Shown piece after piece: positions 10,362-43,944 of a DNA stretch of 64,000 bases. The position numbers and the translations under genes were made by a program. The DNA lies in assembly GCA_965277405.1 (NCBI GenBank), contig OZ255726.1, positions 1,376,001 to 1,440,000 on the forward strand, given 5' to 3'. This DNA is from Gammaproteobacteria bacterium (GTDB taxonomy: Bacteria > Pseudomonadota > Gammaproteobacteria > G965277405). Below the pieces are notes generated by a model. It was not told where the DNA came from. It was given only the letters and a program-made list of their open reading frames with translations, and did no database searches. How positions within the stretch are numbered: the first letter of the stretch is position 1; each line of letters opens with the position of its first letter.

Positions 10362-10365
10362 CTAA

Positions 10366-15545: not shown

Positions 15546-15596
15546 CGCCTTGCAATCATCAGCAATTGTAGCCAAACTCGCTCCATCAGAGCTTCC
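15546..15596. mobile_element. MITE end fragment
   Basis: CGCCTTGCAATCATCAGCAATTG...CTCGCTCCATCAGAGCTTCC|TTAG. Confidence 0.7.
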
Positions 15597-15684
15597 TTAG
15601 ATGAAACTGCTCAAAAAAACATATTGAGTACACACAAGCAAGGCAACGTTTGGTAGCATTTCTTATTTTAACTCACCCTATTGT

Positions 15685-16815
15685 ATGATACCTCTGTCGA
15701 CTTACGCTGGACTGCTTGAACGTTACCGACCTTTTTTGATAATTGATCAAAATATTGTGCCAGTATCATTGTATGAAGGCAATACTCCGCTGCTACCATT
15801 ACTTAATATTCCACGAATCATAAAAAAAGACATACGTCTTTTTGCAAAAATAGAAGGCGCAAATCCAACTGGTTCATTTAAAGATCGTGGGATGACGGCC
15901 GTAATTACTCAAGCAATACGCGATGGTGCGTCTACGGTCGTCTGCGCTTCTACAGGAAATACCTCGGCATCGGCTGCTGCGTATGCTGCAAAAGCGGGGA
16001 TACGTTGTGTCGTGGTTATTCCAGAAAACAAAATTGCCTTAGGAAAACTCGCCCAAGCCATGATATATGGTGCCCAAGTTATTCAAATTAAAGGGGGGTT
16101 TGACGCAGCAATGGAGCTGGTCAAACTTTCTTGTGACCACCCAGAAGTCGTGTTGGTAAACTCGGTGAACCCATATCGGCTGCAAGGGCAAAAAACAATA
16201 GCCTTCGAAATCGTGGAAACGCTGGGCGATGCGCCAGACTACCATTATTTGCCAGTTGGCAATGCTGGCAATATTACTGCGCATTGGATGGGGTATTGTG
16301 AAGCTGCGGGTGAACGTCGTGCATATCCACCAGTTATTAAAGATTTTCACGAGTGGAAGGGTATGCAGTTAGCAAGTAATAGCAGCAAAATGCCTGTAAT
16401 GGTTGGGTATCAGGCCTGTGGCGCCGCTCCATTTGTTGATGGTGGTCCAATCGCTAGCCCAGAAACAATCGCCACTGCAATTCGAATAGGCAGGCCACAG
16501 TCATGGGATTATGCAATTGAAGCGGTTGATCAATCTAAAGGATGGTTTGCTGCCCAGCCGGATGCCAAAATATTGGCAGCACAAAAAATGCTCGCAACTT
16601 GCGAAGGAGTATTTTGTGAACCTGCTTCGGCTGTGAGTTTAGCTGGGCTTCTTGATGACTTGTCACATAATAAAATTACTGCAGGAAGCACGGTTGTGAT
16701 GACGCTAACAGGAAATGGGCTAAAAGATCCACAAATATGTATTGATACGGTCGACGTCAACACCATCAAAAGCATCAAGCCTGTAAAAGCAGAATTAGAG
16801 CCGTTTCTTATTTAA
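15685..16815 (+). CDS. thrC: Threonine synthase
   Basis: NPTGSFKDRG, CASTGNTSASAAAY, NSVNPYR.QGQKT, PVGNAGN. Confidence 0.95.
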   Translation: MIPLSTYAGLLERYRPFLIIDQNIVPVSLYEGNTPLLPLLNIPRIIKKDIRLFAKIEGANPTGSFKDRGMTAVITQAIRDGASTVVCASTGNTSASAAAYAAKAGIRCVVVIPENKIALGKLAQAMIYGAQVIQIKGGFDAAMELVKLSCDHPEVVLVNSVNPYRLQGQKTIAFEIVETLGDAPDYHYLPVGNAGNITAHWMGYCEAAGERRAYPPVIKDFHEWKGMQLASNSSKMPVMVGYQACGAAPFVDGGPIASPETIATAIRIGRPQSWDYAIEAVDQSKGWFAAQPDAKILAAQKMLATCEGVFCEPASAVSLAGLLDDLSHNKITAGSTVVMTLTGNGLKDPQICIDTVDVNTIKSIKPVKAELEPFLI

Positions 16816-16833
16816 AATTATTAGGAGTAGTGT

Positions 16834-17157
16834 ATGGCCACCATGGAAGTTACGACTGACACATTTGAGGAAGAAGTTATTGAACATAAAGACCAACTAG
16901 TCTTGGTAGATTTTTGGGCGTCATGGTGTGGCCCTTGCAAAACTATTGGTCCGATTGTCGAAAAGATTGCAGCACAAATGAGTGATAGTCTAAAAGTATG
17001 CAAAGTGAATGTTGAAGATAATCAAGAAATTGCAGGAAAATATAATGTGCGCGGTATTCCAACATTATTGTTGTTTAAAAATGGCGAGATTGTTGAAAGC
17101 CGCGTTGGTGCGGTGCCTGAAGAGGATATTCTCGGCATGGTTAAAGCGTATAGTTAA
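16834..17157 (+). CDS. trxA: Thioredoxin
   Basis: [16 protein letters not shown]; RBS AGGAG. Confidence 0.95.
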
Positions 17158-18626
17158 TGGTTGATCGAATTAGCGGAGTCGCGCTTACATTTGATGATGT
17201 TTTGCTCGTCCCTGCATACAGCGAAGTAGTCCCCAGTGCAGTTTCATTAACAACCAAACTGTGCAGCAAAATTGAGTTGAGTATTCCAATGCTCTCTGCG
17301 GCAATGGACACTGTTACTGAATCTGGACTAGCGATTGCCTTAGCACAAGAAGGTGGTCTTGGTATTATCCACAAAAACTTATCAATACAGCAACAAGCAG
17401 CAGAAGTCCGTCGGGTTAAAAAGTTTGAAAGTGGCGTTATTCGAGACCCAATCACGATTGACCAACACGCTCCAATCTCGGAGTTGCATGCCATCCGTAA
17501 ACGCTTCGGTATTTCAGGTGTGCCAGTCATTGACGCTGCAAATAATAGCCAAGTTGTTGGCATTGTCACCCAACGTGATGTGCGGTTTTCAACTGATGCC
17601 AAGCAGGTTGTGAGTGCAATTATGACCCCTGCTGAAAAATTGATAACGGTTGGCTGTAACTTCACCATGGCAGAAGCACAGGAAAAAATGCACGCTAATC
17701 GGATTGAAAAAGTCATCGTTGTTGACGATCACATGCAACTGATCGGGATGGTTACGGTGCGAGATTTATTGAAGCATACTATGTTCCCCAACGCCTGTAA
17801 AGATGAACACGGCGCCTTGCGCGTTGGAGCGGCGATTGGCATTGGCGCAGAGAGTCAAAAACGTGCAGAAGCAATTGTCGCGGCAGGTGTTGATGTATTA
17901 GTTGTTGATACCGCGCACGGACATTCACGCAACGTTATAGAAACTGTGTCGTACATGCGCAAGAAGTTTGCGTCGGTGAATCTTATAGCTGGGAATATTG
18001 CTACCGCAGACGCCGCACTGCGCATGGCTGATTGTGGAGTTGATGCGGTAAAAGTTGGTATTGGTCCAGGTTCAATTTGTACAACAAGAATTATTTCTGG
18101 TGTTGGCATGCCACAGATTAGCGCGGTTAGCCAAGTGTCTGCAGCATTGGTAGATAGCAGCGTGTTGGTGATTGCAGACGGTGGAATTCGCTATTCTGGG
18201 GATATTGCTAAAGTGATTGCCGCAGGAGCACATTGTGTCATGGTTGGTAGTTTACTTGCTGGCACGGATGAATCTCCTGGCGAATTTGAGCTATACCAAG
18301 CCCGTTCATACAAGCAATATCGTGGTATGGGTTCGCAAGCGGCAATGAAACAAGGTTCGAGCGATAGATATTTTCAAGAAGGTTCAGAAACAGATAAATT
18401 GGTACCAGAAGGCATTGAAGGTAGAGTACCAGCAAAAGGACCGTTAAAAGGGGTTGTCCACCAGTTGATGGGCGGAGTGCGCTCGTGCATGGGCTACACT
18501 GGTTGTGCCACAATTGATGAGTTGCGCACCAAGACCAAGTTCGTGCAAATTACCAATGCTGGGATGAAAGAAAGCCATGTCCACGATGTCCAAATTACTA
18601 AAGAATCTCCGAATTATCATGTATAA
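17157..18626 (+). CDS. guaB: IMP dehydrogenase
   Basis: [13 protein letters not shown] pair, [18 protein letters not shown]. Confidence 0.97.
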
Positions 18627-18666
18627 TGACACCTACATTCTGCTAGTTTCTTGCTAACAATGCTTT

Positions 18667-19545
18667 GTGAAAACTGTTGTTGCAGTAGGTAAGTTTGATG
18701 CAGTCCACATCGGTCATCAACAATTATTACAGCGTGCAGTTGCAATAGCGCAAGACACCCAGCAGCAACCATGCGCGCTGACATTTGACCCATTACCCAA
18801 TGAATTTTTTGCGCAGGATGATGCGGCATATTTTAGGCTCTACCCAACGCAGGCGCGCATCAAGCTGTTGCAATATTACGGCGCAAAACAAGTTTTTGTA
18901 CAAGCATTTGATGCGGACTTTAGGAATTTGAGCGCAATACAATTTGTCCGCGATGTGCTGTATCAGCAATACCAATGCAGTCACGTGATTGTTGGTGCAA
19001 ACTTTTCTTTTGGTTATCAAAAACAAGGCAATGCCCAGCTGCTTGAGAGGCTCGGCAAACAATATGATATGGCAGTCACGGTCGTACCTCTTGCCACAAG
19101 CCAGCAACAAGTTATTTCTTCTTCGGTAATTCGCGCGGCGGTGTTACGCAATGAATTTACCCAGGCAGCTGATTTGCTTGGGAGGTCGTATTGTTTTTCT
19201 GGTCAAGTGCGTAATGGTAGTAAACTTGGACGAACGCTGGGTTTTCCAACCGCCAACATTGAATTAGTCCATCGGCTACCGTTCGCCGGTGTATATGCTG
19301 TCACAGTAGCTACTGGCAATACGACACATGCAGGGGTAATGAACTGCGGCAACAGACCAACTGTGGGTGGAACCGCACACATTACCGAAGTGCATATATT
19401 CGATTTTTGCGATGATATTTATGGAGAAACGATAACTATAACTCCGCATACGTTTATCCGCGTCGAGCAAAAGTTTGCATCGGTTGATGCGTTGCAGTTA
19501 CAAATAACAAAAGACTGTCAGCAGGCCAAGCGCATCCTGAGCTAA
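18667..19545 (+). CDS. ribF: Riboflavin kinase / FAD synthetase
   Basis: G.FDAVH.GH, ISSS.IR, GRTLGFPTAN, G.RPT, EVHIFDF. Confidence 0.93.
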   Translation: MKTVVAVGKFDAVHIGHQQLLQRAVAIAQDTQQQPCALTFDPLPNEFFAQDDAAYFRLYPTQARIKLLQYYGAKQVFVQAFDADFRNLSAIQFVRDVLYQQYQCSHVIVGANFSFGYQKQGNAQLLERLGKQYDMAVTVVPLATSQQQVISSSVIRAAVLRNEFTQAADLLGRSYCFSGQVRNGSKLGRTLGFPTANIELVHRLPFAGVYAVTVATGNTTHAGVMNCGNRPTVGGTAHITEVHIFDFCDDIYGETITITPHTFIRVEQKFASVDALQLQITKDCQQAKRILS

Positions 19546-19610
19546 CAACGCGGAGGAAAAGCGGCACCCAAAGGCGCCGCCTGTTGCCGTATGTACTTAT
19601 TGGAGCAAGA

Positions 19611-21890
<2,280 letters not shown>

Positions 21891-21895
21891 TTAAA

Positions 21896-21932
21896 ATACA
21901 TTGTCTCTATCACTATGATAGTATTTGTCTAT
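21896..21932. promoter_or_regulatory. OxyR-binding site upstream of katG
   Basis: ATAC-N7-CTAT-N7-ATAG-N7-CTAT, 15/16 match to the OxyR consensus ATAG-N7-CTAT-N7-ATAG-N7-CTAT. Confidence 0.8.
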
Positions 21933-22118
21933 AACTTGTCGTGCCATAATCTGCCAAGCTACGGTGTATTGTGGGTAATCCATAACCGCCGCAATGATTA
22001 AACTGTGCTTGCCATATGTCCGCAGTAAGTTGTTTGCTTTGCAATATACGGGATACAATATGGTGTTGTGTGCATGCATATTAAGGATTCCTGTGCCATA
22101 CCCACATAACTTAGGCAA

Positions 22119-23006
22119 ATGAATTTTAGAGATCTACAATACATAATTGCTGTTGCTAGTACCTTAAGTTTCAGCAGAGCCGCTGAGGCATGCAATGTCT
22201 CACAGCCATCGTTAAGTATGCAAATCAAAAAGCTAGAGGCTGAGCTTGGCATCCAATTATTTATCCGTAATAATCGCCGTGTACAGGTCTCCGCTATGGG
22301 CAAAATTGTGTTAGATCGTGCCCAGCAAATTTTAACACTCAAGGATGAAATATCGAACTTTGCCCAAGCAAACAACAACGTGTTAAAAGGAACAATAAAT
22401 TTAGGCGCAATTTTGACAGTTGCTCCATATGTGTTTCCAGCAATCATTCAAATAACTGCCGTTGCCGCACCAGATACCACTCTCATCTTAAAAGAAGCCA
22501 AAACTGAAGATTTATTAAAAGGGCTGCTCAGTGAAGAAATCGACGCTGCCATTGTTAGCTTGCCAACAGATGACAATGTGTTTGAAAGCCAAGCATTATT
22601 TACAGACCCATTGTATGTGGCTGTTGCTGCGAGCCATCCTTTGGCAAGTCGGCAGATAATTAGTGCTGGGTCATTAGAAAATGAAGCGCTTATCCTGCTA
22701 GAAGAAGGGCATTGCTTGCGCAAGCAGGCGTTAGAAATTTGCTGTTCAATATCTGCACATGAAAACAAAATGTTGCAAGCGTCCAGTTTAGAAACTATTA
22801 AGAGTTTTGTTTCAATTGGTCAAGGACTCACGCTGATGCCAAGTATTGCTAAAAAAAATAACGATGGGATTTGTTATATCCCGCTGCAAAACAACAGTTT
22901 CTCGCGGACCATTGGCCTTGTCTGGAAAAAAGCATCAGCGAAAGCTGTGTTGATATCGCAGTTATTGGGGCTTATGCATACACTGTATATGAGTGATGCA
23001 GCTTAA
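22119..23006 (+). CDS. oxyR: OxyR, LysR-family peroxide sensor
   Basis: LysR HTH; LLEEGHCLRKQALEIC redox cysteine pair; SLET; divergent from katG. Confidence 0.9.
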   Translation: MNFRDLQYIIAVASTLSFSRAAEACNVSQPSLSMQIKKLEAELGIQLFIRNNRRVQVSAMGKIVLDRAQQILTLKDEISNFAQANNNVLKGTINLGAILTVAPYVFPAIIQITAVAAPDTTLILKEAKTEDLLKGLLSEEIDAAIVSLPTDDNVFESQALFTDPLYVAVAASHPLASRQIISAGSLENEALILLEEGHCLRKQALEICCSISAHENKMLQASSLETIKSFVSIGQGLTLMPSIAKKNNDGICYIPLQNNSFSRTIGLVWKKASAKAVLISQLLGLMHTLYMSDAA

Positions 23007-23007
23007 G

Positions 23008-23017
23008 CAGAGCTTCC
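23008..23017 (-). repeat. Isolated IS5/MITE terminal stub
   Basis: CAGAGCTTCC|TTAA, inverted relative to the stub at 11582. Confidence 0.55.
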
Positions 23018-23044
23018 TTAAGTTCGTGGATTGTATGCCCTCAA

Positions 23045-23875
23045 TTATGCGGCTACAGTGCGTTGTTTTTGCTTTCCCAATCCAGCGATGCTCAACTCAA
23101 TGGTTTGTCCAGCTTGCAAAAATTGTTGAGGAGACATCCCTAAACCAACGCCAGCAGGTGTCCCGGTAGAGATGATATCGCCAGGCAGCAACGTCATAAA
23201 CTGCGATAAATAGCTGATAATTGTTGCTGGTTTGAAAATCATTTGGTTGGTATTACTCGCTTGCTTGACGACTCCATCAACGCGCAGCTCCATGGCGAGG
23301 TTAGCAACATCTGCTATTTCACCCAGCGGCACCAAATACGGGCCAGTGGGAGCAAAAGTATCGTGTGATTTACCCTTGACCCATTGTCCGCCACGTTCTG
23401 TTTGAAAGGCGCGCTCTGAAACGTCGTTAATCATACAAACACCAGCGACATGGTTAAGCGCGGCTGCTTCGTCAACATATTTAGCTGGTTTGCCAATTAC
23501 AACTCCAAGCTCTACTTCCCAGTCTGTTTTTTGGCTGGTGCGGGGAATTTCGACATTATCATTGGGTCCACAAAGCGCACTTGGCGCTTTAAAAAAAATG
23601 ATTGGCTCGTTAGGAGGTGTGGCGCCTGTCTCTAGCGCATGGTCAGCATAGTTCAGACCGATGCAGATAAACTTGCTTGGCGTTGGGACACACGAGCCGA
23701 TGCGCTGATTTAGCGAAAGTTGTTCAAGTTTGTTCACATCGATGTCTAGGTTGGCTAAATTGCTGAGCACAGCGGGGGTAAAGTCTGCGATTAAAGGGGA
23801 TAAATCATACGCTGTATCGGTATGGAGTACCGCGGGTTTTTCTTGGCCAATTGCGCCGATGCGTAAAAATTTCAT
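23045..23875 (-). CDS. Fumarylacetoacetate-hydrolase family protein (probable 2,4-diketo-3-deoxy-L-fuconate hydrolase)
   Basis: CIGLNY.DH, DWEVEL, NDVSER, KGKS.DTF, TGTP.GVG; fucose-cluster context. Confidence 0.85.
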   Translation of the reverse strand: MKFLRIGAIGQEKPAVLHTDTAYDLSPLIADFTPAVLSNLANLDIDVNKLEQLSLNQRIGSCVPTPSKFICIGLNYADHALETGATPPNEPIIFFKAPSALCGPNDNVEIPRTSQKTDWEVELGVVIGKPAKYVDEAAALNHVAGVCMINDVSERAFQTERGGQWVKGKSHDTFAPTGPYLVPLGEIADVANLAMELRVDGVVKQASNTNQMIFKPATIISYLSQFMTLLPGDIISTGTPAGVGLGMSPQQFLQAGQTIELSIAGLGKQKQRTVAA

Positions 23876-26680: not shown

Positions 26681-26788
26681 TTGCTGTGTTGCATCCCTTG
26701 GCGGATATGCTACGGCATGCGCCAACGAATACATGCACCTTGCAATTGCAGGCAAAGTCGCTCCATCAGCGGCTTAATCAGAGTTTCC
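26681..26788. mobile_element. Half-MITE
   Basis: TTGCTGTGTTGCATCCCTTGGCG...CTTAATCAGAGTTTCC|CTAG. Confidence 0.7.
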
Positions 26789-27180
26789 CTAGCATCATGA
26801 GCGACTAAAAAGCTGCACCAGCCAACACACACAGCCATAGCAGTGCAATAACAAGGTGCATACCAATACGGCAATAATAAGAGTAAAACAATATCCTATT
26901 GCTAGACTCAATAACGCCTCAACGACACTCCAAATACTCGTTAGCGGCCAAGGAATCCCTATTAGATAGATAAGCGGAAGCATTAACACAATAGCAATCG
27001 TATGAATATATTTATTCAGCAAAATATCAGTAAACATGCTTTCGTTATATCACAAGTGGCGTGTTATCAGTAATTTGGATTTATCGGCACTCGATTACGC
27101 GCTTAATCAATCCACTACACCTGACAACAAGATTGCCAACGTTTCGCAGCAAATAGGCAAAAGCATTATCCAAACTCAAA

Positions 27181-27463
27181 GGGACCTCTGATTAACTCGC
27201 TGATGGAGCGAGTTTGCCTGCAATTGCTGATGATTGCAAAGCGCAAACCGCTAAGCGCATGCCGTAGCATATACGCCAAGGGATGCAACACAGCAAGCGC
27301 AGCAATTGCAGCAAACCGTTGTATATTCAACAGAAGGACGGGAAAAAACGCTGCGCTCACGTCGTTGCACTTGATAATACCACCAGTATTATCAAGTGCT
27401 GCGCCTAGTTATCATCAGCGTTTTTTCTCCGTCTCCCCCATCATGGAATTAATTAGAGATTCC
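27181..27463. mobile_element. MITE with IS5-type termini
   Basis: GGGACCTCTGATTAACTCGCTGATGG...AATTAATTAGAGATTCC|CTAA. Confidence 0.85.
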
Positions 27464-27593
27464 CTAAGGCAACTTGACCGACTCAACATCGCCAACGTTA
27501 TCTATACGGGCTGGCGCCTACGCTAGAGTCGATAATACTCACTACTTGATCGGTTAAGCAAAATTCTCACTAGGCTTGCAGGCAATTATGAGT

Positions 27594-27685
27594 AAAAAAA
27601 ACGCCACAGTAAACTGTGGCGTTCAATAGCATTTTATGATCTAAACCTTGTTAACGGAAAGCTCACATTTTCCAGAGTGCTATAT
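27594..27685 (-). ncRNA. tracrRNA
   Basis: Anti-repeat 27650-27685 (CATTTTCCAGAGTGCTATA identical to the repeat), then GTTAACAAG nexus-like motif and hairpin AACGCCACAGT/ACTGTGGCGTT with T-run on the minus strand. Confidence 0.9.
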
Positions 27686-27690
27686 TTTCT

Positions 27691-27719
27691 ATTAAAACAT
27701 AAGATGTTGTATATTTCAA
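27691..27719 (-). promoter_or_regulatory. Sigma70-type promoter of tracrRNA
   Basis: Minus strand TTGAAA-17 nt-TTTAAT with TG extension, immediately upstream of the anti-repeat. Confidence 0.65.
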
Positions 27720-27919
27720 GTGGGACTTTGCATTAAAATAAGTAATTCAGCAATTTTTTTAAAATAAGGCAGATGCATTTATTGTGCGTGTTTTTATATT
27801 TGGCACATGAATTTACAAGAGGATCGAGTTAACATTATCGTAATCAGCAGACGATAGCACCATCTGGTCAAGCTAATTACGCCAGTTGGTTGGTATACAC
27901 ATTTATAAAGGAGAAAATA

Positions 27920-28045
27920 ATGAAAATACGTTTAGGCATAGATGTAGGAACAAACTCGCTGGGCTGGGCTGTACTTGAATTGGATGAAAAAAATGAAGTG
28001 ATCCGCACCATTGATGCTGGGGTGCGTATTTTTTCAGATGGCTGA
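27920..28045 (+). other. 41-codon duplicate of the Cas9 N-terminus (RuvC-I), mini-ORF or pseudogene
   Basis: MKIRLGIDVGTNSLGWAVLELDEKNEVIRTIDAGVRIFSDG*, 37/41 identical to Cas9 residues 1-41; own AAGGAG RBS. Confidence 0.85.
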
Positions 28046-28092
28046 AACCTAGGTGTTGGTTGGTATACACATTATATTAAGGAGAAAACATA

Positions 28093-31000
28093 ATGAAATG
28101 GCGTTTAGGAATAGATTTAGGCACGAACTCGCTTGGCTGGGCTGTACTTGAATTGGATGAAAAAAATGAAGTGATCCGCATCATTGATGCTGGAGCCCGT
28201 ATTTTTTCAGATGGAAGAAATCCAAAAGATAAGCATTCAAATGCAGTAACAAGAAGAGAAGCGCGTGGTGCCAGGCGGAATCGAGGTCGCGGAAAAAATC
28301 GGCAAGCTCGTTTGATGCAAGAGCTTATATCCGTAGGCTTGATGCCGAGTGACGAGACAGCACGCAAAGCTTTAGAAGGAGGAAAAAACATTTCGCAGTT
28401 AGCAACAGACCCTTGGATTTTACGCTGCCGCGCCCTAAAAGAAGCAATATCCCTGCAGCAAATAGGCAGAGTTATTTTTCATCTAGGGCAAAGACGTGGT
28501 TTTAAATCCAATCGAAAAACAGACCGAGCTAATAATGAAAAAGGCAAAGTCAAAGATGCTATTGCTCGCACCAAAGCTGATTTAGCCCAGCAAGGTGCGA
28601 CAACTCTTGGTGAATTGTTTGGCAAACCGCGACTCGACGTCGCCATACAAAACGCGCAACTGGCAAAAGGCAGGCGCTTGCCGCAACCATTAGCTCGAGT
28701 ACGTAGTACGGGTCAGGGTGTCAAATTGCAATATGACTATTATCCCACCCGCGAACTTATCCTCGACGAATTCGAGCAAATATGGCAAAAGCAAGCAGAA
28801 TATCATGCTGAGACTTTAACGGATGATGCCTATGATATTATCCAACAAACCCTTGCTTTTCAATACCCGTTAAAGCCACAACCTATTGGCAAATGCACCT
28901 TGCTGCCAGAAGAGTTGAGACTTGCAAAGGCAATGCCGACTTTTCAGCGTTCGCGGGTGTATCAAGAAGTCAATAACCTGCGTATTTGCCCAATTGGCGG
29001 GAAGGAATATTCAATTACGCTCGAGCAACGAGATGCAATTGTTAAACGGCTGCTGCAGCCAACCAGCCAAAAAGGAACAGTAACGTTCAACCAGTTGAGA
29101 AAATTATTAAGCCTATCAGCTTACGATATATTTAATCTAGAAAGTGAAAATAGACCATACTTAGAAGGCGATAAAACAGCGGCTGTGATGATGCAAAAAG
29201 AACGTTGGGGAACTGCATGGCTTAAGCTGGATACACCTGCCCAAGATGAAATTATTGAAAAACTGCTAGAAGAAGAAAACGAAGCAGACTTGCTCACATG
29301 GCTACAGCAACAATATGGCTTTGATACAGTACAAGCAGAAGCTATTGCAGACGCCCCTATTCCAAATGGCTATGGCAATCTTTCTAAAAAAGCGGTCGAC
29401 TGCTTGCAACCTATATTGCAAGCTGAAGTCATTACTTATGCAAAAGCTGCAATACGAGTATTTGGCTCCCATAGTAATTTTGCAACAGGAGAACTTCATG
29501 ATTTGCACCTGCCATATTATGGCAAAATATTAGAACGCCATGTTGCTTTTGGCTCAGGTAAGCCAGGTGACAAAGATGAACAACGCTACGGTAAAATCGC
29601 TAACCCAACCGTCCACGTAGCGTTGAATCAAGTGCGGGCTGTGGTGAATGATTTAATCCGCCGTTTTAAAGCGCCACATCAAGTTGTTATAGAAGTTGCA
29701 CGCGACTTACCGCTTTCTGCCAAAGGAAAAGGTGAGTTGTCAAGTCAACAACAGACTAACAAAGAAGCAAATGAGAGTCGGAAAGCCCGTTTAGTTGACG
29801 AGTATGGCGTTGCCAACACCCATGAAAATCGGCTACGGTTGCGTTTATATGACGAAATGGAGGCAATGGCTAAGCAATGCATATATAGTGGCAGACAAAT
29901 AGGCTTACATGAACTATTTAGCCACGCTATAGAGATAGACCATATCCTTCCTTTTTCACAAAGTTTGGACGACAGCTTTGCCAACAAAGTAATGTGCACG
30001 CGGGAAGCGAATCGTGATAAAGGCAATAACAGCCCATACCAAGCGTTTAGTCACAGCCCAAATGGCTATAGCTGGGAGGACATTTGCAATAGGGTTAAAT
30101 CTTTACCAGACAAAAATAAAAATAAAAAAAATAAAAAAAACAATATAGGTAATAAACATTGGCGGTTTAACGCTGATGCTATGGAGCAATTTGCAGAGGA
30201 AGGTGGTTTTTTAGCGCGGCAACTTAATGACACAAAATATATTGCCAGATTAACAAAAAGCTATTTAGAAGTAATGTTTGGTGGGGCGCCAACAGCTGGA
30301 GGCAGCCAACGTGTTTGGGTGGTAGTAGGCAAGCTAACAGCAGATCTACGCTATGTATGGAATTTAGATAGCGTGTTATTGGGTCACGATATTGCTGTTT
30401 CAGCAGCACAAAAGAAAAACCGCAGCGACCACCGCCACCATGCCATTGATGCAATTGTGATTGGGCTCACAGATAGAAAACTTGTTAAAAAAGCAGCATT
30501 GATTGCACAAGAAAATGAAGATTTAGGAACACGGCTGTTTGCAAGAATGCCCTTACCATGGCATGGCTTTAAAGAACAAGTGCGAACAGTATTAGAAAAA
30601 GTAGTTGTCAGCCACAAACCAGACCATGGTTATCAAGGAGCTATGCTCGACGGTACTGCATATGGGATAATGAATAAAAGCAAAATTGAGTCTGACTTTA
30701 CAAAAGCAGTTTCTGTTGTAACCCGTAAGTCATTAGATGATAGTAAATTTTTTAAAGCGCATCCAGACCTAAAAAAAATACGCGACCCAGACATTAAGGC
30801 ATCGTTACTTGCTGCCACTCAAGGGTATGGCGGGAGTGAATTTAAGCATGCGTTGGTGCAAGCAGGTGAGGCGATGCAGCCACCAGTACGTCGCGTTCGC
30901 ATCATTAAAAACGAGACGATCATCCCAATTGTCGATTATAAAACGGCACAAGTCTATAAAGGCTATGAAAGTGGCAGCAATTATTGTTATGATATTTGGC

Positions 31001-31362
31001 AAAATGGAACTGGCAAATGGGATGGGGTGGTCGTGTCGACATATACAGCATATCAACGTGCAAAAATAGATCCACAATGGTGGCGCAAGCCAGTAGATGA
31101 TGATGGAAAACCGCTGATTATGCGCCTACGCAAAAATGACATGTTGCGGATTCAAGATGCAGGGCGTGATAAAATTGTACGCGTCGTAAAATTTACTAAG
31201 GGGGTTCTTGCTTTAGCTGAGCATTTTGAAGCAAACGTTGACGCCAGGAACAGGAGCAAAGACGACGAGTTGAAATATATTTTTAAGGCGCCTTCAGCAC
31301 TGCAAAAAGCAAACGCCATCCGCATCACGGTCAGTCCATCGGGATTGGTTAAACGGTATTGA
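28093..31362 (+). CDS. cas9: Type II-C Cas9, 1089 aa
   Basis: RuvC-I GIDLG, Arg-rich bridge helix, RRGFKSNRK, NPTV, IEVAR, HNH EIDHILP...NKV...N..KGN, LNDT.Y, RHHAIDA all intact. Confidence 0.97.
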   Translation: MKWRLGIDLGTNSLGWAVLELDEKNEVIRIIDAGARIFSDGRNPKDKHSNAVTRREARGARRNRGRGKNRQARLMQELISVGLMPSDETARKALEGGKNISQLATDPWILRCRALKEAISLQQIGRVIFHLGQRRGFKSNRKTDRANNEKGKVKDAIARTKADLAQQGATTLGELFGKPRLDVAIQNAQLAKGRRLPQPLARVRSTGQGVKLQYDYYPTRELILDEFEQIWQKQAEYHAETLTDDAYDIIQQTLAFQYPLKPQPIGKCTLLPEELRLAKAMPTFQRSRVYQEVNNLRICPIGGKEYSITLEQRDAIVKRLLQPTSQKGTVTFNQLRKLLSLSAYDIFNLESENRPYLEGDKTAAVMMQKERWGTAWLKLDTPAQDEIIEKLLEEENEADLLTWLQQQYGFDTVQAEAIADAPIPNGYGNLSKKAVDCLQPILQAEVITYAKAAIRVFGSHSNFATGELHDLHLPYYGKILERHVAFGSGKPGDKDEQRYGKIANPTVHVALNQVRAVVNDLIRRFKAPHQVVIEVARDLPLSAKGKGELSSQQQTNKEANESRKARLVDEYGVANTHENRLRLRLYDEMEAMAKQCIYSGRQIGLHELFSHAIEIDHILPFSQSLDDSFANKVMCTREANRDKGNNSPYQAFSHSPNGYSWEDICNRVKSLPDKNKNKKNKKNNIGNKHWRFNADAMEQFAEEGGFLARQLNDTKYIARLTKSYLEVMFGGAPTAGGSQRVWVVVGKLTADLRYVWNLDSVLLGHDIAVSAAQKKNRSDHRHHAIDAIVIGLTDRKLVKKAALIAQENEDLGTRLFARMPLPWHGFKEQVRTVLEKVVVSHKPDHGYQGAMLDGTAYGIMNKSKIESDFTKAVSVVTRKSLDDSKFFKAHPDLKKIRDPDIKASLLAATQGYGGSEFKHALVQAGEAMQPPVRRVRIIKNETIIPIVDYKTAQVYKGYESGSNYCYDIWQNGTGKWDGVVVSTYTAYQRAKIDPQWWRKPVDDDGKPLIMRLRKNDMLRIQDAGRDKIVRVVKFTKGVLALAEHFEANVDARNRSKDDELKYIFKAPSALQKANAIRITVSPSGLVKRY

Positions 31363-31383
31363 TAATACTTGGAATATATCAAG

Positions 31384-31464
31384 GGAAGCTCTGAATAATT
31401 CCATGGTGGTGAGACGGAGCAAAAATGACGTTAGCGCATCGTTTTTCCCGTCATCAGAGGTTCC
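31384..31464. mobile_element. 81-bp internally deleted MITE between cas9 and cas1
   Basis: GGAAGCTCTGAATAATTCCATGGTGGTGAGACGG...CATCAGAGGTTCC. Confidence 0.75.
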
Positions 31465-31494
31465 TAAGGTAACAAGCGTCAGCGCGAGTGGTCT

Positions 31495-32433
31495 GTGCAT
31501 AATCGGATTATAGAAATAACGAGCGACAGAGTGTATATCAGCGCTGAGCGTGGTTTTTTGAGAATGACTAGGCAAAAAGAATTACTTGGTAAAGTTGCGC
31601 TCGACGATATATCAGGGGTTATCATCCGTGGCTACGGGGCTACAATATCTGCGAATATTTGTGCACATCTTGCTGCATCTCATGTACCAATTATAATTTG
31701 CGGCAGTGATCAACTGCCAGCAAGCGTAGTATGGCCAATTAATGGGAATTTTCAGCAAGGTATTCATATGCAGGCTCAGGCAGATGCTAAAAAGCCGTTG
31801 TGTAAGAGACTTTGGTCAGCATTGGTGCAAGCAAAAATTACCAATCAAGCGTTGGTTCTTGGCTACGATGGCAAAGAAAATGCAGACGTATTAGCAATGG
31901 CAGCGCGGGTAAAATCAGGCGATGCTGATAATGTAGAGGCACAAGCAGCAAGACGATATTGGAAACGTCTACTAGGTAGTGATTTTAAACGTGACCGGCA
32001 ACAACACGGTATTAACGCCGCATTGAATTATGGGTATACAGTATTGCGTGCAGCAACCGCCCGCTCAATTTTGGTGGCTGGACTGCATCCATCGCTTTCC
32101 ATCCACCATCAAAGCCGTGGTGATGCGCTACGATTGGCTGATGACTTAATGGAACCATTTCGCCCATTTGTAGACTTGGTTGTGTTGGGGCTAGTAACAG
32201 CACAGCAAACGGCGCAAGATATTGAACTAAACAAAGAGACAAAATCCAGACTGGTAGCAGTGTTATCGCTAGACTTGAAGAGTTGTAAAGGAACAAGCCC
32301 GTTACAACTGTGCCTTGACCGCCTCGCACAATCACTGGTTGCTGTATTTATGGGGCAACAGACAAAGTTAGAACTACCACAAGCACCATTTGCCTTGCAT
32401 AGTTTAATAAAAAGCAACCCAGAGCAGTTATAA
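31495..32433 (+). CDS. cas1: Cas1 (type II)
   Basis: KI.NQ, SGD..N.EAQAARRYW, NAALNYGY.VLR, LADDLMEPFRP. Confidence 0.97.
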   Translation: MHNRIIEITSDRVYISAERGFLRMTRQKELLGKVALDDISGVIIRGYGATISANICAHLAASHVPIIICGSDQLPASVVWPINGNFQQGIHMQAQADAKKPLCKRLWSALVQAKITNQALVLGYDGKENADVLAMAARVKSGDADNVEAQAARRYWKRLLGSDFKRDRQQHGINAALNYGYTVLRAATARSILVAGLHPSLSIHHQSRGDALRLADDLMEPFRPFVDLVVLGLVTAQQTAQDIELNKETKSRLVAVLSLDLKSCKGTSPLQLCLDRLAQSLVAVFMGQQTKLELPQAPFALHSLIKSNPEQL

Positions 32434-32434
32434 T

Positions 32435-32779
32435 ATGCACCAAGAAACGACACACTTAAATGGATATAGACTGATGTGGGTTATGGTTTTGTTTGATTTA
32501 CCGACAACGACACCCGAAGAACGGCGGGCATATACTTTATTTCGCGCACATTTGCTAGATCAAGCATTCGAAATGGCACAATACTCAGTATACGTGCGCC
32601 ATACATCAGGTAAAGATGCCGCGAAAGCTATCATACGCAGAATAACTGTATCTGTGCCGGCAGAAGGCAAGGTTGACATTTTGCAGTTCACCGACAAGCA
32701 GTATGCAAACATAATCTGTCTAAGAGGAAAACGTAGAGCATATTCGCCAAAAAACCCCGAACAATTGGTGATGTTTTGA
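32435..32779 (+). CDS. cas2: Cas2
   Basis: YRLMW..VLFDLP, FR..LL, M.QYSVY, TDKQY. Confidence 0.97.
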   Translation: MHQETTHLNGYRLMWVMVLFDLPTTTPEERRAYTLFRAHLLDQAFEMAQYSVYVRHTSGKDAAKAIIRRITVSVPAEGKVDILQFTDKQYANIICLRGKRRAYSPKNPEQLVMF

Positions 32780-32783
32780 TGAA

Positions 32784-32827
32784 AACCGAGGATATTTTAA
32801 TAAGAATTCTATTAAAAAACCTCGGTT
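32784..32827. terminator. Inverted repeat between cas2 and the array; likely terminator for convergent transcripts
   Basis: AACCGAGG..TTTTAATA / TATTAAAA..CCTCGGTT. Confidence 0.55.
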
Positions 32828-32851
32828 ATTCAACGATATAGCTGCAAGCTA

Positions 32852-35800
32852 AGTATAGCACTCTGGAAAATGAAAGCCAACCGCAACACAAGGGTTGGCT
32901 TATTGCTACACTTGTGTAGTATAGCACTCTGGAAAATGAAAGCCAACCGCAACATATGGGTAGCAGTTTAGCTTGATTTGGATAGTATAGCACTCTGGAA
33001 AATGAAAGCCAACCGCAACACACGCAGAGCTCTTGCGCACTTCTCACTTAGTATAGCACTCTGGAAAATGAAAGCCAACCGCAACGGAATGATAGGTAGT
33101 AATGTCCGCGGCATGAGTATAGCACTCTGGAAAATGAAAGCCAACCGCAACTTTCCACCTCTTTTAACCCCCTATATCTTGAGTATAGCACTCTGGAAAA
33201 TGAAAGCCAACCGCAACACATCATCCCATGCGTCCGTAAAACGATTTAGTATAGCACTCTGGAAAATGAAAGCCAACCGCAACACCCGTCGTCGCTATAA
33301 GTAGATTCTGGAAAGTATAGCACTCTGGAAAATGAAAGCCAACCGCAACAAAAATGAATGAACTCCCTTATAAACTATAAGTATAGCACTCTGGAAAATG
33401 AAAGCCAACCGCAACAACTTCTTTCATAGATAAAAGATATTCGTTAGTATAGCACTCTGGAAAATGAAAGCCAACCGCAACCTATATAAATTTTGCTGCC
33501 TTTTTTTATATAGTATAGCACTCTGGAAAATGAAAGCCAACCGCAACCCGATACACCAGCAGCACTTTTGGTGCATTAGTATAGCACTCTGGAAAATGAA
33601 AGCCAACCGCAACATGTGTTTTAAACTTACGTCCGCCAGTTTTAGTATAGCACTCTGGAAAATGAAAGCCAACCGCAACCTAATTTGTGCCCAACCATTG
33701 GCAGATGACAGTATAGCACTCTGGAAAATGAAAGCCAACCGCAACTGCTTTAAAACCCAACGATACACAACTTTAAGTATAGCACTCTGGAAAATGAAAG
33801 CCAACCGCAACCGAACGTGGCGCAATAAAATTAAAAAGCGGAGTATAGCACTCTGGAAAATGAAAGCCAACCGCAACTTTACCCCGCTTTCGGTGGTTAA
33901 AGGCTTAAGTATAGCACTCTGGAAAATGAAAGCCAACCGCAACGTGCACCACTGCCGCCGTGCCAAAATACGCAGTATAGCACTCTGGAAAATGAAAGCC
34001 AACCGCAACAGTGCTTTAGGGTTTTAAAACCAAATGGAAAGTATAGCACTCTGGAAAATGAAAGCCAACCGCAACCAACGCATCACGAGGGTTTGCATAT
34101 TCTAAAGTATAGCACTCTGGAAAATGAAAGCCAACCGCAACAGACCTTTATTAAAAACCTCTTGCTTGACAAGTATAGCACTCTGGAAAATGAAAGCCAA
34201 CCGCAACACTTGGCACCTCGATTTTAAATATTGAAAAGTATAGCACTCTGGAAAATGAAAGCCAACCGCAACAATGAGCAAGTGGAACATCACGCTAGCG
34301 TAGTATAGCACTCTGGAAAATGAAAGCCAACCGCAACCAAAAACAGCTATCTTCCCTAAGCGCGGAGAGTATAGCACTCTGGAAAATGAAAGCCAACCGC
34401 AACTCAAAACGAGTTTGGTAATCTGGTTCTTTGAGTATAGCACTCTGGAAAATGAAAGCCAACCGCAACATTCTGTGCAGTCTGCCACCCTAATGATTAA
34501 GTATAGCACTCTGGAAAATGAAAGCCAACCGCAACATGGGTTACGTCGCTGCCAATTTCTTGCGGAGTATAGCACTCTGGAAAATGAAAGCCAACCGCAA
34601 CTCACGGCGTTTTGTGTGATTTGCGATTGTGAGTATAGCACTCTGGAAAATGAAAGCCAACCGCAACTGAAACTCAGCAGACTTTCTGTCACCGCCCAGT
34701 ATAGCACTCTGGAAAATGAAAGCCAACCGCAACTGCCTGCGAGAAGAATATGAACCATTAAAAAGTATAGCACTCTGGAAAATGAAAGCCAACCGCAACT
34801 CCATCCGCCGCACAGGCTCATACACAGCTAGTATAGCACTCTGGAAAATGAAAGCCAACCGCAACAACCAAACCCCTGGTTGCTCATTCTCTATAAGTAT
34901 AGCACTCTGGAAAATGAAAGCCAACCGCAACTGCAACTAGTTCAGCCTTGTATTTTCTTTCAGTATAGCACTCTGGAAAATGAAAGCCAACCGCAACCAT
35001 CGCCTTAAACACCCCAGTTGCCAACGAAGTATAGCACTCTGGAAAATGAAAGCCAACCGCAACACTTTGGGACGAATGGAGCCAGACAAGCGCAGTATAG
35101 CACTCTGGAAAATGAAAGCCAACCGCAACCTACCAATGATTTCTTCGTGCGTCACGTCGAGTATAGCACTCTGGAAAATGAAAGCCAACCGCAACTGGAA
35201 TGTATGATTGTGATGTTCATGATGCAGTATAGCACTCTGGAAAATGAAAGCCAACCGCAACCCAACAACCTGCCATTGGGCGCTCCAATCGAGTATAGCA
35301 CTCTGGAAAATGAAAGCCAACCGCAACTTTGGCGTTCGCCGATATATCGCCATGAACAGTATAGCACTCTGGAAAATGAAAGCCAACCGCAACGCTATCG
35401 TGGGTTCTATTGCATTTGCTGCAAGTATAGCACTCTGGAAAATGAAAGCCAACCGCAACAGAAAACAATCTAACGTCGGTAAAAATATCAGTATAGCACT
35501 CTGGAAAATGAAAGCCAACCGCAACGCTTATACCACATGGCGGCCAAGCGCATGGAGTATAGCACTCTGGAAAATGAAAGCCAACCGCAACAAATGTCAA
35601 TTTGCGCCAATGTTCTCAATAAGTATAGCACTCTGGAAAATGAAAGCCAACCGCAACTGCCAATGATTTGTTTAAGCGCAATTGCCGAGTATAGCACTCT
35701 GGAAAATGAAAGCCAACCGCAACTTAAAAAATGAACGAACTCCCTTATAAACTAGTATAGCACTCTGGAAAATGAAAGCCAACCGCAACCTAAAATCCCT

Positions 35801-38800
35801 GCATTCATCAGGGTTATGCAGTATAGCACTCTGGAAAATGAAAGCCAACCGCAACCTCGAATTAGAACAAGCCACGGTTGAAGTCAGTATAGCACTCTGG
35901 AAAATGAAAGCCAACCGCAACCTAAAATCCCTGCATTCATCAGGGTTATGCAGTATAGCACTCTGGAAAATGAAAGCCAACCGCAACCTCGAATTAGAAC
36001 AAGTCACGGTTGAAGTCAGTATAGCACTCTGGAAAATGAAAGCCAACCGCAACTTCTGCTACCACGTCTTGCACGCAGTAGGCAGTATAGCACTCTGGAA
36101 AATGAAAGCCAACCGCAACAGAGCCATCTGTTAATCCATGGGCTAACGCAGTATAGCACTCTGGAAAATGAAAGCCAACCGCAACTGGCGTCGACCTTGA
36201 CGCCTTTGCCGTATTAGTATAGCACTCTGGAAAATGAAAGCCAACCGCAACCAAAGGATAGCTAACGTCATCCCCCTGATTAGTATAGCACTCTGGAAAA
36301 TGAAAGCCAACCGCAACGTTTATTAAGCGTATCAATAGCTGACGCGCAGTATAGCACTCTGGAAAATGAAAGCCAACCGCAACTTACAGTGAATTCGCAG
36401 CGGTCGGGAGATTAGTATAGCACTCTGGAAAATGAAAGCCAACCGCAACAGTTCTATAAAATGTACCATTTGTGGACGGAGTATAGCACTCTGGAAAATG
36501 AAAGCCAACCGCAACTTCTGCTACCACGTCTTGCACGCAGTAGGCAGTATAGCACTCTGGAAAATGAAAGCCAACCGCAACTGGCGTCGACCTTGACGCC
36601 TTTGCCGTATTAGTATAGCACTCTGGAAAATGAAAGCCAACCGCAACCAAAGGATAGCTAACGTCATCCCCCTGATTAGTATAGCACTCTGGAAAATGAA
36701 AGCCAACCGCAACGTTTATTAAGCGTATCAATAGCTGACGCGCAGTATAGCACTCTGGAAAATGAAAGCCAACCGCAACCTATGCTGCAAAATGCCGCTG
36801 CGCCTAGGCAGTATAGCACTCTGGAAAATGAAAGCCAACCGCAACCAACCGTTTTAATAGTGCCTAAAGCCATTTAGTATAGCACTCTGGAAAATGAAAG
36901 CCAACCGCAACCAACCGTTTTAATAGTGCCTAAAGCCATTTAGTATAGCACTCTGGAAAATGAAAGCCAACCGCAACAAAGGTCGTAAATAGGCTATCAG
37001 TTGCCCCAGTATAGCACTCTGGAAAATGAAAGCCAACCGCAACTATGAAAGGCGTTATTGCAATGTTTATTGCAGTATAGCACTCTGGAAAATGAAAGCC
37101 AACCGCAACCTAAACAGTTGTAAGTAGTCCACCCACCCCAGTATAGCACTCTGGAAAATGAAAGCCAACCGCAACCCGCCTGCGGCGGTGACCACATACC
37201 AATTAAGTATAGCACTCTGGAAAATGAAAGCCAACCGCAACTTTGCTTTGTAAGGTAATACGGATTCCAGCAGTATAGCACTCTGGAAAATGAAAGCCAA
37301 CCGCAACCAACCGTTTTAATAGTGCCTAAAGCCATTTAGTATAGCACTCTGGAAAATGAAAGCCAACCGCAACCAGGCGGCTGGTCGTTATTGGGTGGCG
37401 GATAGTATAGCACTCTGGAAAATGAAAGCCAACCGCAACTAACAAGCGACGTTTCCCACCAATGCATGGAGTATAGCACTCTGGAAAATGAAAGCCAACC
37501 GCAACAAAGGTCGTAAATAGGCTATCAGTTGCCCCAGTATAGCACTCTGGAAAATGAAAGCCAACCGCAACCTTCAGCTAACACGCGTTTAGCAATCGAA
37601 CAGTATAGCACTCTGGAAAATGAAAGCCAACCGCAACAACGGACACTGTCATGAGTAACCCTCCAAAAGTATAGCACTCTGGAAAATGAAAGCCAACCGC
37701 AACTAGCGAGGAGTAGGCTACTGTTTGCCGCCCAGTATAGCACTCTGGAAAATGAAAGCCAACCGCAACAAATGTCAATTTGCGCCAATGTTCTCAATAA
37801 GTATAGCACTCTGGAAAATGAAAGCCAACCGCAACATGCGGAGTGTCATAAAATCGCAGACGAATAGTATAGCACTCTGGAAAATGAAAGCCAACCGCAA
37901 CTGCCTACTGGTTCAATAATTTCAATGGCAAAGTATAGCACTCTGGAAAATGAAAGCCAACCGCAACTTCCACATGAAAATGCGTCGGTATGCATTAGTA
38001 TAGCACTCTGGAAAATGAAAGCCAACCGCAACAGTTTATGCCTTGTTATGTGTTTCATTTTAAGTATAGCACTCTGGAAAATGAAAGCTAACCGCAACCT
38101 CTCATTGATGATGTTGAATGTTTGCGGGAGTATAGCACTCTGGAAAATGAAAGCCAACCGCAACTTGTTGAGCAAATTACAATATATAATTACGAGTATA
38201 GCACTCTGGAAAATGAAAGCCAACCGCAACCTTTTTGACGCCATCGACCGAATCGCAGTAAGTATAGCACTCTGGAAAATGAAAGCCAACCGCAACTAAA
38301 TTGTTCAGTGGGGTGCTGGGGAATTCAGTATAGCACTCTGGAAAATGAAAGCCAACCGCAACCCATTCTCAAGAAGCTAATTGGCTGGGCTGAGTATAGC
38401 ACTCTGGAAAATGAAAGCCAACCGCAACTATCGCTCATATTTTCATTTGCCACATACCAGTATAGCACTCTGGAAAATGAAAGCCAACCGCAACCTGCGC
38501 CACGTTTAAGTTTTACGTATGCTTAGTATAGCACTCTGGAAAATGAAAGCCAACCGCAACTGATGGCCCGCACTACCAGCTTTCTTGGAAAGTATAGCAC
38601 TCTGGAAAATGAAAGCCAACCGCAACAACGCTTCATGAGGATTCGTGTATTCTAATAGTATAGCACTCTGGAAAATGAAAGCCAACCGCAACCCTTGGGT
38701 CTCAGAAGGATTTGGTACGTGTAGTATAGCATTCTGGAAAATGAAAGCCAACCGCAACCTGTCAAGTTAACGTGAGTCCTGCCTGCCAAGTATAGCACTC

Positions 38801-39712
38801 TGGAAAATGAAAGCCAACCGCAACCAGGCGTTTTAATAGTGCCTAAAGCCATTTAGTATAGCACTCTGGAAAATGAAAGCCAACCGCAACCTACGCTAAA
38901 TACGTTTTAAACATCGACAAGAGTATAGCACTCTGGAAAATGAAAGCCAACCGCAACATTTGCCACAAACGAAGGTGGCAATTATGGAGTATAGCACTCT
39001 GGAAAATGAAAGCCAACCGCAACTGAGGTTGGTGGTGTAGGTTGTGGCGATACAGTATAGCACTCTGGAAAATGAAAGCCAACCGCAACAAAACGCAACG
39101 CAGGGAGCACAGGCAATGCAGTATAGCACTCTGGAAAATGAAAGCCAACCGCAACAAAGCCACGGACGACGAAATAAGCTTGGTTAGTATAGCACTCTGG
39201 ATAATGAAAGCCAACCGCAACCGTGGTAGCTAAAGACAAATTAGCTACTGGAGTATAGCACTCTGGAAAATGAAAGCCAACCGCAACATGACGATAAAAG
39301 GCAAAGCACGTCTTGCCAAGTATAGCACTCTGGAAAATGAAAGCAAACCGCAACAGTTACAGCAGTCCGCACTAACTCGTTTACAGTATAGCACTCTGGA
39401 AAATGAAAGCCAACCGCAACACCAAAACATACGACAGAACACTTGATAAAGTATAGCACCCTGGAAAATGAAAGCCAACCGCAACCGATTATCTGTTGGG
39501 GCAACTGATAGCCTAAGTATAGCACTCTGGAAAATGAAAGCCAACCGCAACAGATTTACAGGCGTTCGGAGTGTTGGTATAAGTATAGCACTCTGGAAAA
39601 TGAAAGCCAACCGCAACCACTCTAACAAAACTAATAGATATTTTTGTAGTATAGAACTCTGGAAAATGAAAGCCAACCGCAACAGCCTGGGTGAATGAAA
39701 GCCAACCGCAAC
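32852..39712 (-). CRISPR. CRISPR array: 104 full 36-bp repeats, 103 spacers of 29-31 bp, plus a truncated terminal unit
   Basis: Repeat (minus strand) GTTGCGGTTGGCTTTCATTTTCCAGAGTGCTATACT; manual count; orientation from tracrRNA complementarity and the TGCTATACT extended -10. Confidence 0.98.
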
Positions 39713-42548: not shown

Positions 42549-42564
42549 CTTAAAAAACTTCCTT

Positions 42565-43940: not shown

Positions 43941-43944
43941 TTAA

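Follow-up and report, generated by a model that had tools for sequence, protein, structure and literature searches.

A tandem copy of the cas9 5ʹ end, probably a duplication relic, in the leader of a gammaproteobacterial type II-C cas9 gene

We analysed a 64,000-nucleotide (nt) stretch of DNA from a Gammaproteobacteria bacterium (assembly GCA_965277405.1, contig OZ255726.1, positions 1,376,001 to 1,440,000 of the forward strand; hereafter the window), in which cas9 is directly preceded by a second, truncated copy of its own beginning. Judged from its gene content, the locus is a complete type II-C CRISPR-Cas system, with a Cas9 that carries HNH and split RuvC domains, cas1, cas2, a putative trans-activating CRISPR RNA (tracrRNA) and a repeat-spacer array. 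Alignment revealed a direct tandem repeat in front of cas9, in which a first copy of 170 nt is followed by a second of 173 nt that ends at about position 28227 (Table 1). The repeat search of the window returned this arrangement as a 137-nt pair with 88% identity at a spacing of 173 nt and a 19-nt pair with 100% identity at a spacing of 170 nt. The 19-mer GTTGGTTGGTATACACATT opens both copies and is followed in each by an AAGGAG site and by an ATG (at 27920 in the first copy and 28093 in the second); the repeat period is 170 nt at the heads and 173 nt in the coding part, the leader having acquired a pair of small indels. The sequence, the alignment and the repeat search thus bore out a first-pass annotation of this DNA, which had described a unit of 19-mer, AAGGAG and 41 codons that occurs twice.

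The upstream copy contains an open reading frame (ORF) of 41 codons and a TGA, here called the mini-ORF, which copies residues 1-41 of the adjacent Cas9. Its product is identical to the host Cas9 in 37 of the 41 residues, the four differences being I3 for W3, V9 for L9, T30 for I30 and V35 for A35; six other codons (6, 10, 11, 14, 34 and 41) differ only synonymously, and 13 of the 123 nt differ between the two copies. Codons 15-29 are the same in both copies and lie in an identical run of 46 nt. All of these counts (six synonymous differences, four replacements and an identical core of 15 codons) agree with those given in the first-pass annotation. The mini-ORF product matched the Cas9 model TIGR01865 over positions 2-34 with an E value of 2e-10, under the family cut-off since it is only a fragment, and it retains the conserved glycine/threonine/asparagine/serine motif of RuvC-I together with Asp8 of the first strand, which we take to be the catalytic Asp. 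The retention of Asp8 had been recognised before, whereas the stop had been placed just before the bridge helix; the ORF in fact ends about 10 residues short of the arginine-rich helix.

The mini-ORF stop is located 47 nt upstream of the cas9 ATG and 34 nt upstream of the cas9 Shine-Dalgarno (SD) sequence, and does not overlap either of them. The last 13 nt of the first copy match the corresponding cas9 bases (28215-28227) at only 6 of 13 positions, and this junction could be either filler or fast-diverged sequence. When read past its TGA, the mini-ORF frame would close at a TAA that overlaps the cas9 ATG (TAATG, 28091-28095). Such a stop-start overlap is typical of coupled genes and may have that meaning here, or it may be a coincidence, as one frame in three would fit.

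Table 1. Features of the duplicated cas9 start and of the surrounding type II-C locus (window coordinates)
Feature	Position	Strand	Basis or remark
Upstream repeat unit (copy 1): 19-nt head, SD, 41-codon ORF, stop, 13-nt junction	27885..28054	+	sequence, alignment, repeat search, blastn
19-nt head of copy 1	27885..27903	+	identical to 28055-28073; at no other place in the genome
AAGGAG ribosome-binding site, 6 nt ahead of the mini-ORF ATG	27908..27913	+	read from sequence
Mini-ORF, 41 codons plus TGA, RuvC-I strands with Asp8	27920..28045	+	translation, TIGR01865 fragment match
46-nt stretch of copy 1, proposed donor of the conversion tract	27962..28007	+	identical to 28135-28180 in cas9
Junction stretch, including TGA 28043-28045	28042..28054	+	read from alignment
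cas9-proximal repeat unit (copy 2): 19-nt head, AAGGAG 28079-28084, cas9 codons 1-45	28055..28227	+	sequence, alignment
cas9 core, codons 15-29; same as copy 1 in the window strain, but with 28161 T and 28175 G (D23, S28) in the second strain	28135..28180	+	contigs, protein comparison
Unique sequence separating tracrRNA from copy 1; presumed cas9 promoter region	27694..27884	+	one weak sigma-70-like match at 27812-27841; inferred
Putative tracrRNA, divergent from cas9, ends approximate	27592..27693	-	anti-repeat 27648-27693; terminator-like hairpin 27624-27599, then T run
cas9, 1089 amino acids	28093..31362	+	Pfam HNH_4, RuvC_III, Cas9_a; TIGR01865 648 bits (cut-off 100)
cas1	31495..32433	+	Pfam Cas_Cas1
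cas2	32435..32779	+	Pfam CRISPR_Cas2
CRISPR array, 104 repeats (36 nt), 103 spacers (29-31 nt)	32852..39683	-	transcribed strand inferred from orientation of anti-repeat and terminator

The blastn comparison of the repeat within the 2.17-Mb genome gave an E value of 1.6e-55, far above chance, and both the unit and the 19-mer were found in two places only, so that a dispersed element could be ruled out. Contigs that bridge the junction between the two copies were present in both runs examined (187 nt, 27978-28164, in run X1 and 183 nt, 27978-28160, in run X2), with no differences from the assembly and a depth equal to that of the flanks, which rules out an assembly artefact. Runs X1 and X2 come from one study that possibly includes the source sample of the assembly, and they provide only limited independent support; X2 carries five other differences in cas9 and represents a slightly different strain. 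A 30-nt match at window positions 42528-42557 corresponds to the A-rich beginning of another gene and was dismissed as chance.

The distribution of the duplicated start was examined with the Cas9 N-terminus as the query. With six loci of the genome itself set aside, 111 distinct loci matched at the N-terminus, and 101 of these had at least 300 nt of upstream sequence. In none of these 101 other Cas9 loci did we find a second N-terminal copy, and two adjacent N-terminus matches were found in none of the 30 matching genomes among 400 genomes of the class, which for the loci examined rules out a recurrent feature of Cas9 loci. The sole relative of the mini-ORF product among the proteins of 22-72 amino acids in a collection of 5.8 billion was a protein of 41 amino acids with one replacement (P0123; R29C), which is encoded on the same 387-kb contig as the Cas9 of a second strain (P0002). 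There were no near relatives among the species representatives, the 60 relatives offered sharing the class only, and the nearest foreign Cas9 overall had 61% identity. As far as these comparisons reach, the duplicated unit is restricted to the species or lineage and is present in at least two assemblies of the species. A search upstream of other cas9 loci had been proposed in the first-pass annotation and, once run, returned nothing in the 101 loci; the unit is nevertheless not unique to one genome, as the second assembly of the same species encodes the 41-residue ORF. The designation as a stand-alone RuvC-I peptide gene appears overstated for a unit found in one species, with a single same-species small protein as its relative. 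In those parts of the literature that full-text searches reached, no report of a duplicated cas9 5ʹ end or of a cas9 leader ORF was found.

The only other repeats observed upstream of cas9 in these loci were an anti-repeat (L117) and a non-coding repeat of 64-68 nt (L049). The latter, in front of a distant cas9 in genome G300, is a direct repeat in five copies with 82-87% identity, located at 308-1218 and, just before the cas9 start, at about 1435-1498. The class-genome N-terminus most similar to our query (64% over query residues 2-56) is on contig C51 of genome G230 (L024/L133/L134), where a short frame of about 201-220 amino acids is followed by one of 980. As in the mini-ORF, a short ORF there encodes a Cas9 N-terminus; however, this fragment belongs to a single cas9 split over two frames, by either a frameshift or an assembly error, and was rejected as a duplicate, whereas the mini-ORF of the window is an extra copy beside an intact gene.

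The state of the repeat in the second strain could be taken from the proteins P0002 and P0123 and from the X2 contigs. The Cas9 of this strain differs from that of the window in 3 of 1089 residues (E23D, I28S and V837A), and all three changes recur in the X2 contigs (28161 A>T, 28175 T>G and 30602 T>C), together with four synonymous ones. Two of the three amino-acid differences are located within 41 of the 1089 residues (P 0.004), and two of the seven nucleotide differences within 46 of 4708 nt (P 0.002), whereas E23 and I28 are present in the upstream copies of both strains. The 46-nt identical run of the window strain has a P value of 0.02 by nucleotide permutation and 0.05 by codon permutation; with the state of the second strain, the differences between the copies are evenly spread and the longest run of identical codons is 8 (P 0.53). 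This suggests that the identical core is probably a conversion tract, in which sequence of the upstream copy was transferred to cas9 in the window lineage, with the direction inferred without an outgroup. The X2 contigs break at 28160/28176 and the variant contig has a depth of 19.6 in comparison to 45.5. These ends and depths suggest that both states of the core may coexist in the X2 sample, although contigs drop minor variants. The proposal that the upstream copy can recombine with cas9 through the identical core is thus partially supported, by E23D and I28S inside the core, with P between 0.002 and 0.05 depending on how events are counted.

The pairwise ratio of nonsynonymous to synonymous divergence (dN/dS) between the first copy and cas9 was 0.18, with a dS of about 0.33. 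In the first-pass annotation this kind of difference was taken as divergence under coding constraint, which our results do not establish. A low dN/dS would be seen in any case, given that one of the two copies, cas9, is under constraint and that gene conversion transfers constrained sequence to the relic; recurrent conversion would thus explain a cas9-like divergence of the upstream copy without selection on the peptide. The 13 changes were indistinguishable from those expected at a mean dN/dS of 0.5-0.6, in which only cas9 is constrained (P 0.03-0.17). Among 119 Cas9 homologues, position 3 is occupied by W in 94 and by Y in 22, but never by I, and position 30 by L in 92, I in 15, V in 7 and M in 4, but never by T, whereas V9 (16 of 119) and V35 (90 of 119) are ordinary. 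The mini-ORF therefore departs from the family-typical aromatic residue at position 3 and aliphatic residue at position 30, and polarisation by the homologues places three of the four replacements on the upstream copy. Since I3 and T30 occur in no homologue, constraint looks relaxed, and the residue pattern points to a mini-ORF under relaxed constraint. Between the two near-identical strains, R29C amounts to one replacement in 41 mini-ORF residues, in comparison to one in the 1048 residues of Cas9 that the repeat does not cover.

With regard to expression, cas9 is presumably transcribed from a start upstream of 27885, and the SD sequence and ATG of the upstream copy would therefore probably be translated. 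We found no terminator-like sites on the + strand between 27400 and 28400. A promoter inside the unit was ruled out, as the two sigma-70-like matches there (27894-27921 and 28066-28094) overlap the start codons and could not drive either ORF. A structured leader attenuator was rejected as well, as the leader fold had a z-score of +1.05 and 171 of 200 shuffled sequences folded at least as well. In the type II-A system of Streptococcus pyogenes, a long form of the tracrRNA reportedly represses the cas9 promoter. The present locus resembles that system in having a divergent tracrRNA and the cas9 leader in one intergenic region, but the S. pyogenes mechanism is an RNA-guided repression that involves no duplicated coding piece. 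Self-targeting or guide-directed regulation was also excluded, since the longest match of an array spacer in 27700-28300 was 12 nt (about 0.14 expected, by our estimate); the spacers of a second array of this genome, described below, matched 27000-32850 over at most 11-13 nt, and for neither array did the matches go beyond chance.

Taken together, we favour, with a probability of about 0.6, the explanation that a partial tandem duplication left the upstream unit behind as a relic, which probably acts as an incidental translated upstream ORF (uORF) and as an occasional conversion donor. In this scenario, local recombination would have duplicated about 170 nt in tandem, that is, 35 nt of leader and the first 41-45 codons of cas9. 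The relic, lying between the presumed cas9 promoter and cas9, would probably be co-transcribed with the gene, and its AAGGAG and ATG would probably allow translation of an incidental 41-codon uORF, the peptide of which would be limited to the initial three strands of the RuvC fold and have no function of its own. As the copies are about 89% identical, they could still recombine, and a tract of at least 15 and at most 46 nt would have put codons 23 and 28 of the relic into the cas9 of the window strain, giving rise both to the identical core and to two changed Cas9 residues.

Partial tandem gene duplications in bacterial genomes leave truncated pseudo-copies beside the parent gene. The unit, too, repeats part of the gene next to it, in direct orientation and without a gap, is cut short by a premature stop, is specific to one lineage and carries substitutions at otherwise invariant positions. 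It differs from such pseudo-copies in that it has a ribosome-binding site and a start codon, is located in the leader of its parent, is likely still translated and has diverged with a synonymous bias. The feature probably belongs to a known class, in which a pseudo-5ʹ end remains from a partial tandem duplication; its two twists are the probable translation in the leader and the probable role as conversion donor. With regard to the origin, a partial tandem duplication in situ, in a genome prone to such events, seems most likely, and an illegitimate join during the import of a diverged cas9 allele less likely, because local tandem repeats abound in the genome, because a partial duplicate of another gene is located in the same window and because no closer Cas9 donor was found. 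The tandem-repeat survey of the genome, as we read it, contained many arrays and about 17 other simple two-copy tandem pairs. Long arrays of tandem repeats of 123 to 290 nt were observed at genome positions 599464-622282, 2702-9887, 15437-23708, 138225-146517, 1480591-1493676, 1882631-1885183 and elsewhere; these are presumably giant repetitive genes, and repeats are unusually abundant for a genome of this size. The partial duplicate of the other gene is at window positions 4436-5292, as a 407-nt unit with 86% identity, where an ORF of 121 amino acids (4702-5067) is a second copy, with 88% identity, of the coiled-coil and membrane-helix part at the C-terminus of a TPR protein (3770-4681).

Several observations weigh against a functionless relic that donates sequence to cas9. 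The synonymous excess departs from neutrality (P 0.003-0.004); the mini-ORF is free of indels and internal stops, while a 19-nt piece of the leader has acquired two indels, which would fit some selection; and the frame is whole at 41 codons in two assemblies. A synonymous divergence of about 0.33 implies either long retention or the import of an allele that was born diverged, as a perfect 170-nt repeat is easily lost. The case for conversion consists of two nucleotides, and its polarity is provisional, because the collections contain no relatives of the same genus. Moreover, at 30891 and 30894 (cas9 codons 933 and 934) the synonymous third bases of adjacent arginine codons are swapped between the strains (CGT CGC as opposed to CGC CGT); given this second tight pair, clustered changes also occur elsewhere in cas9, and when clusters are counted as single events, the P value is about 0.05 (5 events × 46/4708, by our arithmetic). 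It is possible that the second strain acquired two point mutations or an imported patch instead.

The persistence and the synonymous divergence of the copy would also be expected if the unit were the scar of a cas9 allele replacement, the main alternative, which we consider unlikely. Incoming DNA of a diverged strain would then have recombined homologously in cas9, with an illegitimate join to the resident gene at its codon 41, leaving the resident 5ʹ end, now the mini-ORF and likewise a relic today, ahead of the imported one. The copies would have diverged before they were joined, as two alleles diverge while working genes (dS about 0.33, dN/dS 0.18), and repeats that differed from birth would resist deletion and so persist. 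The 13-nt junction, which resembles neither flank well, would suit filler or an illegitimate join, and the clustered strain differences at 28161/28175 and 30891/30894 suggest patchy recombination in the species. However, the 5.8 billion proteins contain no closer full-length donor allele for the mini-ORF, the own Cas9 matching at 85-90% and the next at 71%. I3 and T30, unseen in 119 working homologues, do not suggest the beginning of a functional allele, the homology breaks off abruptly at 27885 where alleles should share sequence further upstream, and this genome generates many local tandem duplications unaided. Of the first-pass proposal of an allele-swap scar, the scar is therefore the best-supported description of the present status, whereas the swap was left with no donor in the search. 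A selected, cis-acting translated leader, in which translation of the mini-ORF would tune the stability of cas9 mRNA, the access of Rho or initiation, is in our view quite unlikely. The consensus AAGGAG at a 6-nt spacing, the frame kept at 41 codons in two assemblies, the lack of a terminator-like site before cas9 and the low dN/dS agree with such a leader, and the TAA at 28091-28093 that the frame would reach past its TGA could be a trace of ancestral translational coupling. Attenuation leaders and leaders of the erm/cat type are conserved across relatives and act by alternative RNA structures or stalling motifs. The mini-ORF resembles them as a short ORF with its own SD sequence and start codon in the 5ʹ leader, on the same strand as cas9 and with no terminator in between, provided that the promoter is located where we place it. 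In contrast to them, it is absent from the 101 other Cas9 loci and from the 30 class genomes and occurs in the same species only, its leader has a fold no more stable than that of shuffled sequence and so offers no structure for translation to remodel, and its sequence is that of the Cas9 start, which a regulatory leader need not preserve. The 34 nt between the mini-ORF stop and the cas9 SD sequence and the rate of replacement implied by R29C also speak against it.

The probable conversion patch also brings to mind a dedicated silent cassette, that is, a donor that would rewrite the RuvC-I hairpin (around residues 15-29) or the whole Cas9 N-terminus, for instance in escape from an inhibitor, and we regard this as very improbable. 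In the silent-cassette systems of Neisseria (pilE/pilS) and Borrelia (vlsE), expressed genes are altered by conversion from silent copies. The likeness is that a truncated copy is homologous to part of an expressed gene, into which a short patch has seemingly been copied in one strain. Two of the three Cas9 differences between the strains fall into the core, the window state is the cassette state, and both core states may coexist in X2, to judge from the contig breaks and the depths given above. On the other hand, those systems hold several variant cassettes, whereas the 2.17-Mb genome holds two copies of the unit, hence a single cassette with its own start signals and at most one alternative state; no recombination-initiating element was seen, and the repeat search revealed neither a dedicated recombination element nor any inverted or special repeats near the unit. 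The donor residues I3 and T30 are tolerated by no homologue, the putative event is a single one of 2 nt, and homology between tandem paralogues commonly gives rise to conversion as a side effect. Least credible of all is a trans-acting RuvC-I peptide or decoy, in which the product of 41 amino acids would bind Cas9 or something that targets Cas9. It could be argued that Asp8 and the conserved RuvC-I motif have been kept and that the ORF is callable as a gene in two assemblies. The peptide, however, has three strands only, stops before the arginine-rich helix and is mutated at two hydrophobic or aromatic positions that are invariant in the family. Function in trans is unlikely because the rest of the fold is supplied by Cas9 segments hundreds of residues downstream (RuvC_III match at 705-842) and because the peptide ends before that helix; an isolated piece would find a partner surface only in a full-length Cas9 lacking its own N-terminus. 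The unit is moreover species-restricted (none in 101 loci or in 30 class genomes), and we found nothing in support of the trans-acting peptide that the first-pass annotation had listed among its options.

The remaining components of the locus are consistent with its assignment to type II-C. The N-terminus of Cas9 aligns to the solved II-C Cas9 chains 8jtj and 9ar4, and between cas9 and the start of the array at 32852 there is no room for a fourth gene such as csn2 or cas4. The anti-repeat at 27648-27693 has 78-92% complementarity to the CRISPR repeats; in Rfam, the tail of the putative tracrRNA gave a sub-threshold match only (ncS54, 28.2 bits in comparison to a threshold of 43). A 22-nt stretch of spacer 21 of this array is an exact match to the chromosome itself (1943879-1943900); either a partial self-match or the remains of a prophage could account for it. 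The genome contains a second type II locus (G000:C1:2053063-2056086) with a Cas9-like frame of 1062 amino acids, 29-30% identical to the Cas9 of the window, and an array at about 2057525-2058800 with at least 19 repeats that differ in sequence from those of the first array. A near-identical spacer (28 nt, 96%) is common to both arrays, at window positions 39156-39183 (spacer 95 of the first array) and genome positions 2058020-2058047 in the second, and the two systems thus seem to have sampled the same invader.

We also noticed a dispersed repeat of about 290 nt with more than 200 copies in the genome (blastn coverage of 200-227 per position, contig depth about 400 times that of the flanks). 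Within the window it occurs at 27179-27468, 5417-5687, 8545-8835, 10086-10367, 15546-15589, 26681-26783, 43670-43946 and 55993-56238. One copy adjoins the tracrRNA side of the locus and another is located just upstream of the second cas9 (genome positions 2052436-2052744). A partial inverted copy of this element was the source of two of the inverted repeats found by the repeat search.

For annotation, our results mean that the hypothetical protein of 41 amino acids upstream of cas9 in the two assemblies is a fragment of cas9 rather than a new Cas-associated gene. Should the relic be inert, which we consider most likely, the feature is an ordinary duplication in a repeat-rich genome and nothing further. 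It is improbable, in our estimate, that the 41-codon copy has been kept both as a translated uORF that sets Cas9 dosage and as a resident donor of patches for the RuvC-I hairpin; were this true, N-terminal variants of Cas9 (E23/I28 and D23/S28) would arise by conversion within the locus and possibly coexist in the population, and a defence gene would carry its own template for variation. In either case the locus offers a natural experiment, with a strong SD-ORF in the leader of cas9 and a homologous template 170 nt from the gene, which raises the questions of how translation of the leader would affect the dosage of Cas9 and what share intralocus conversion may have in the diversity of Cas9 alleles.

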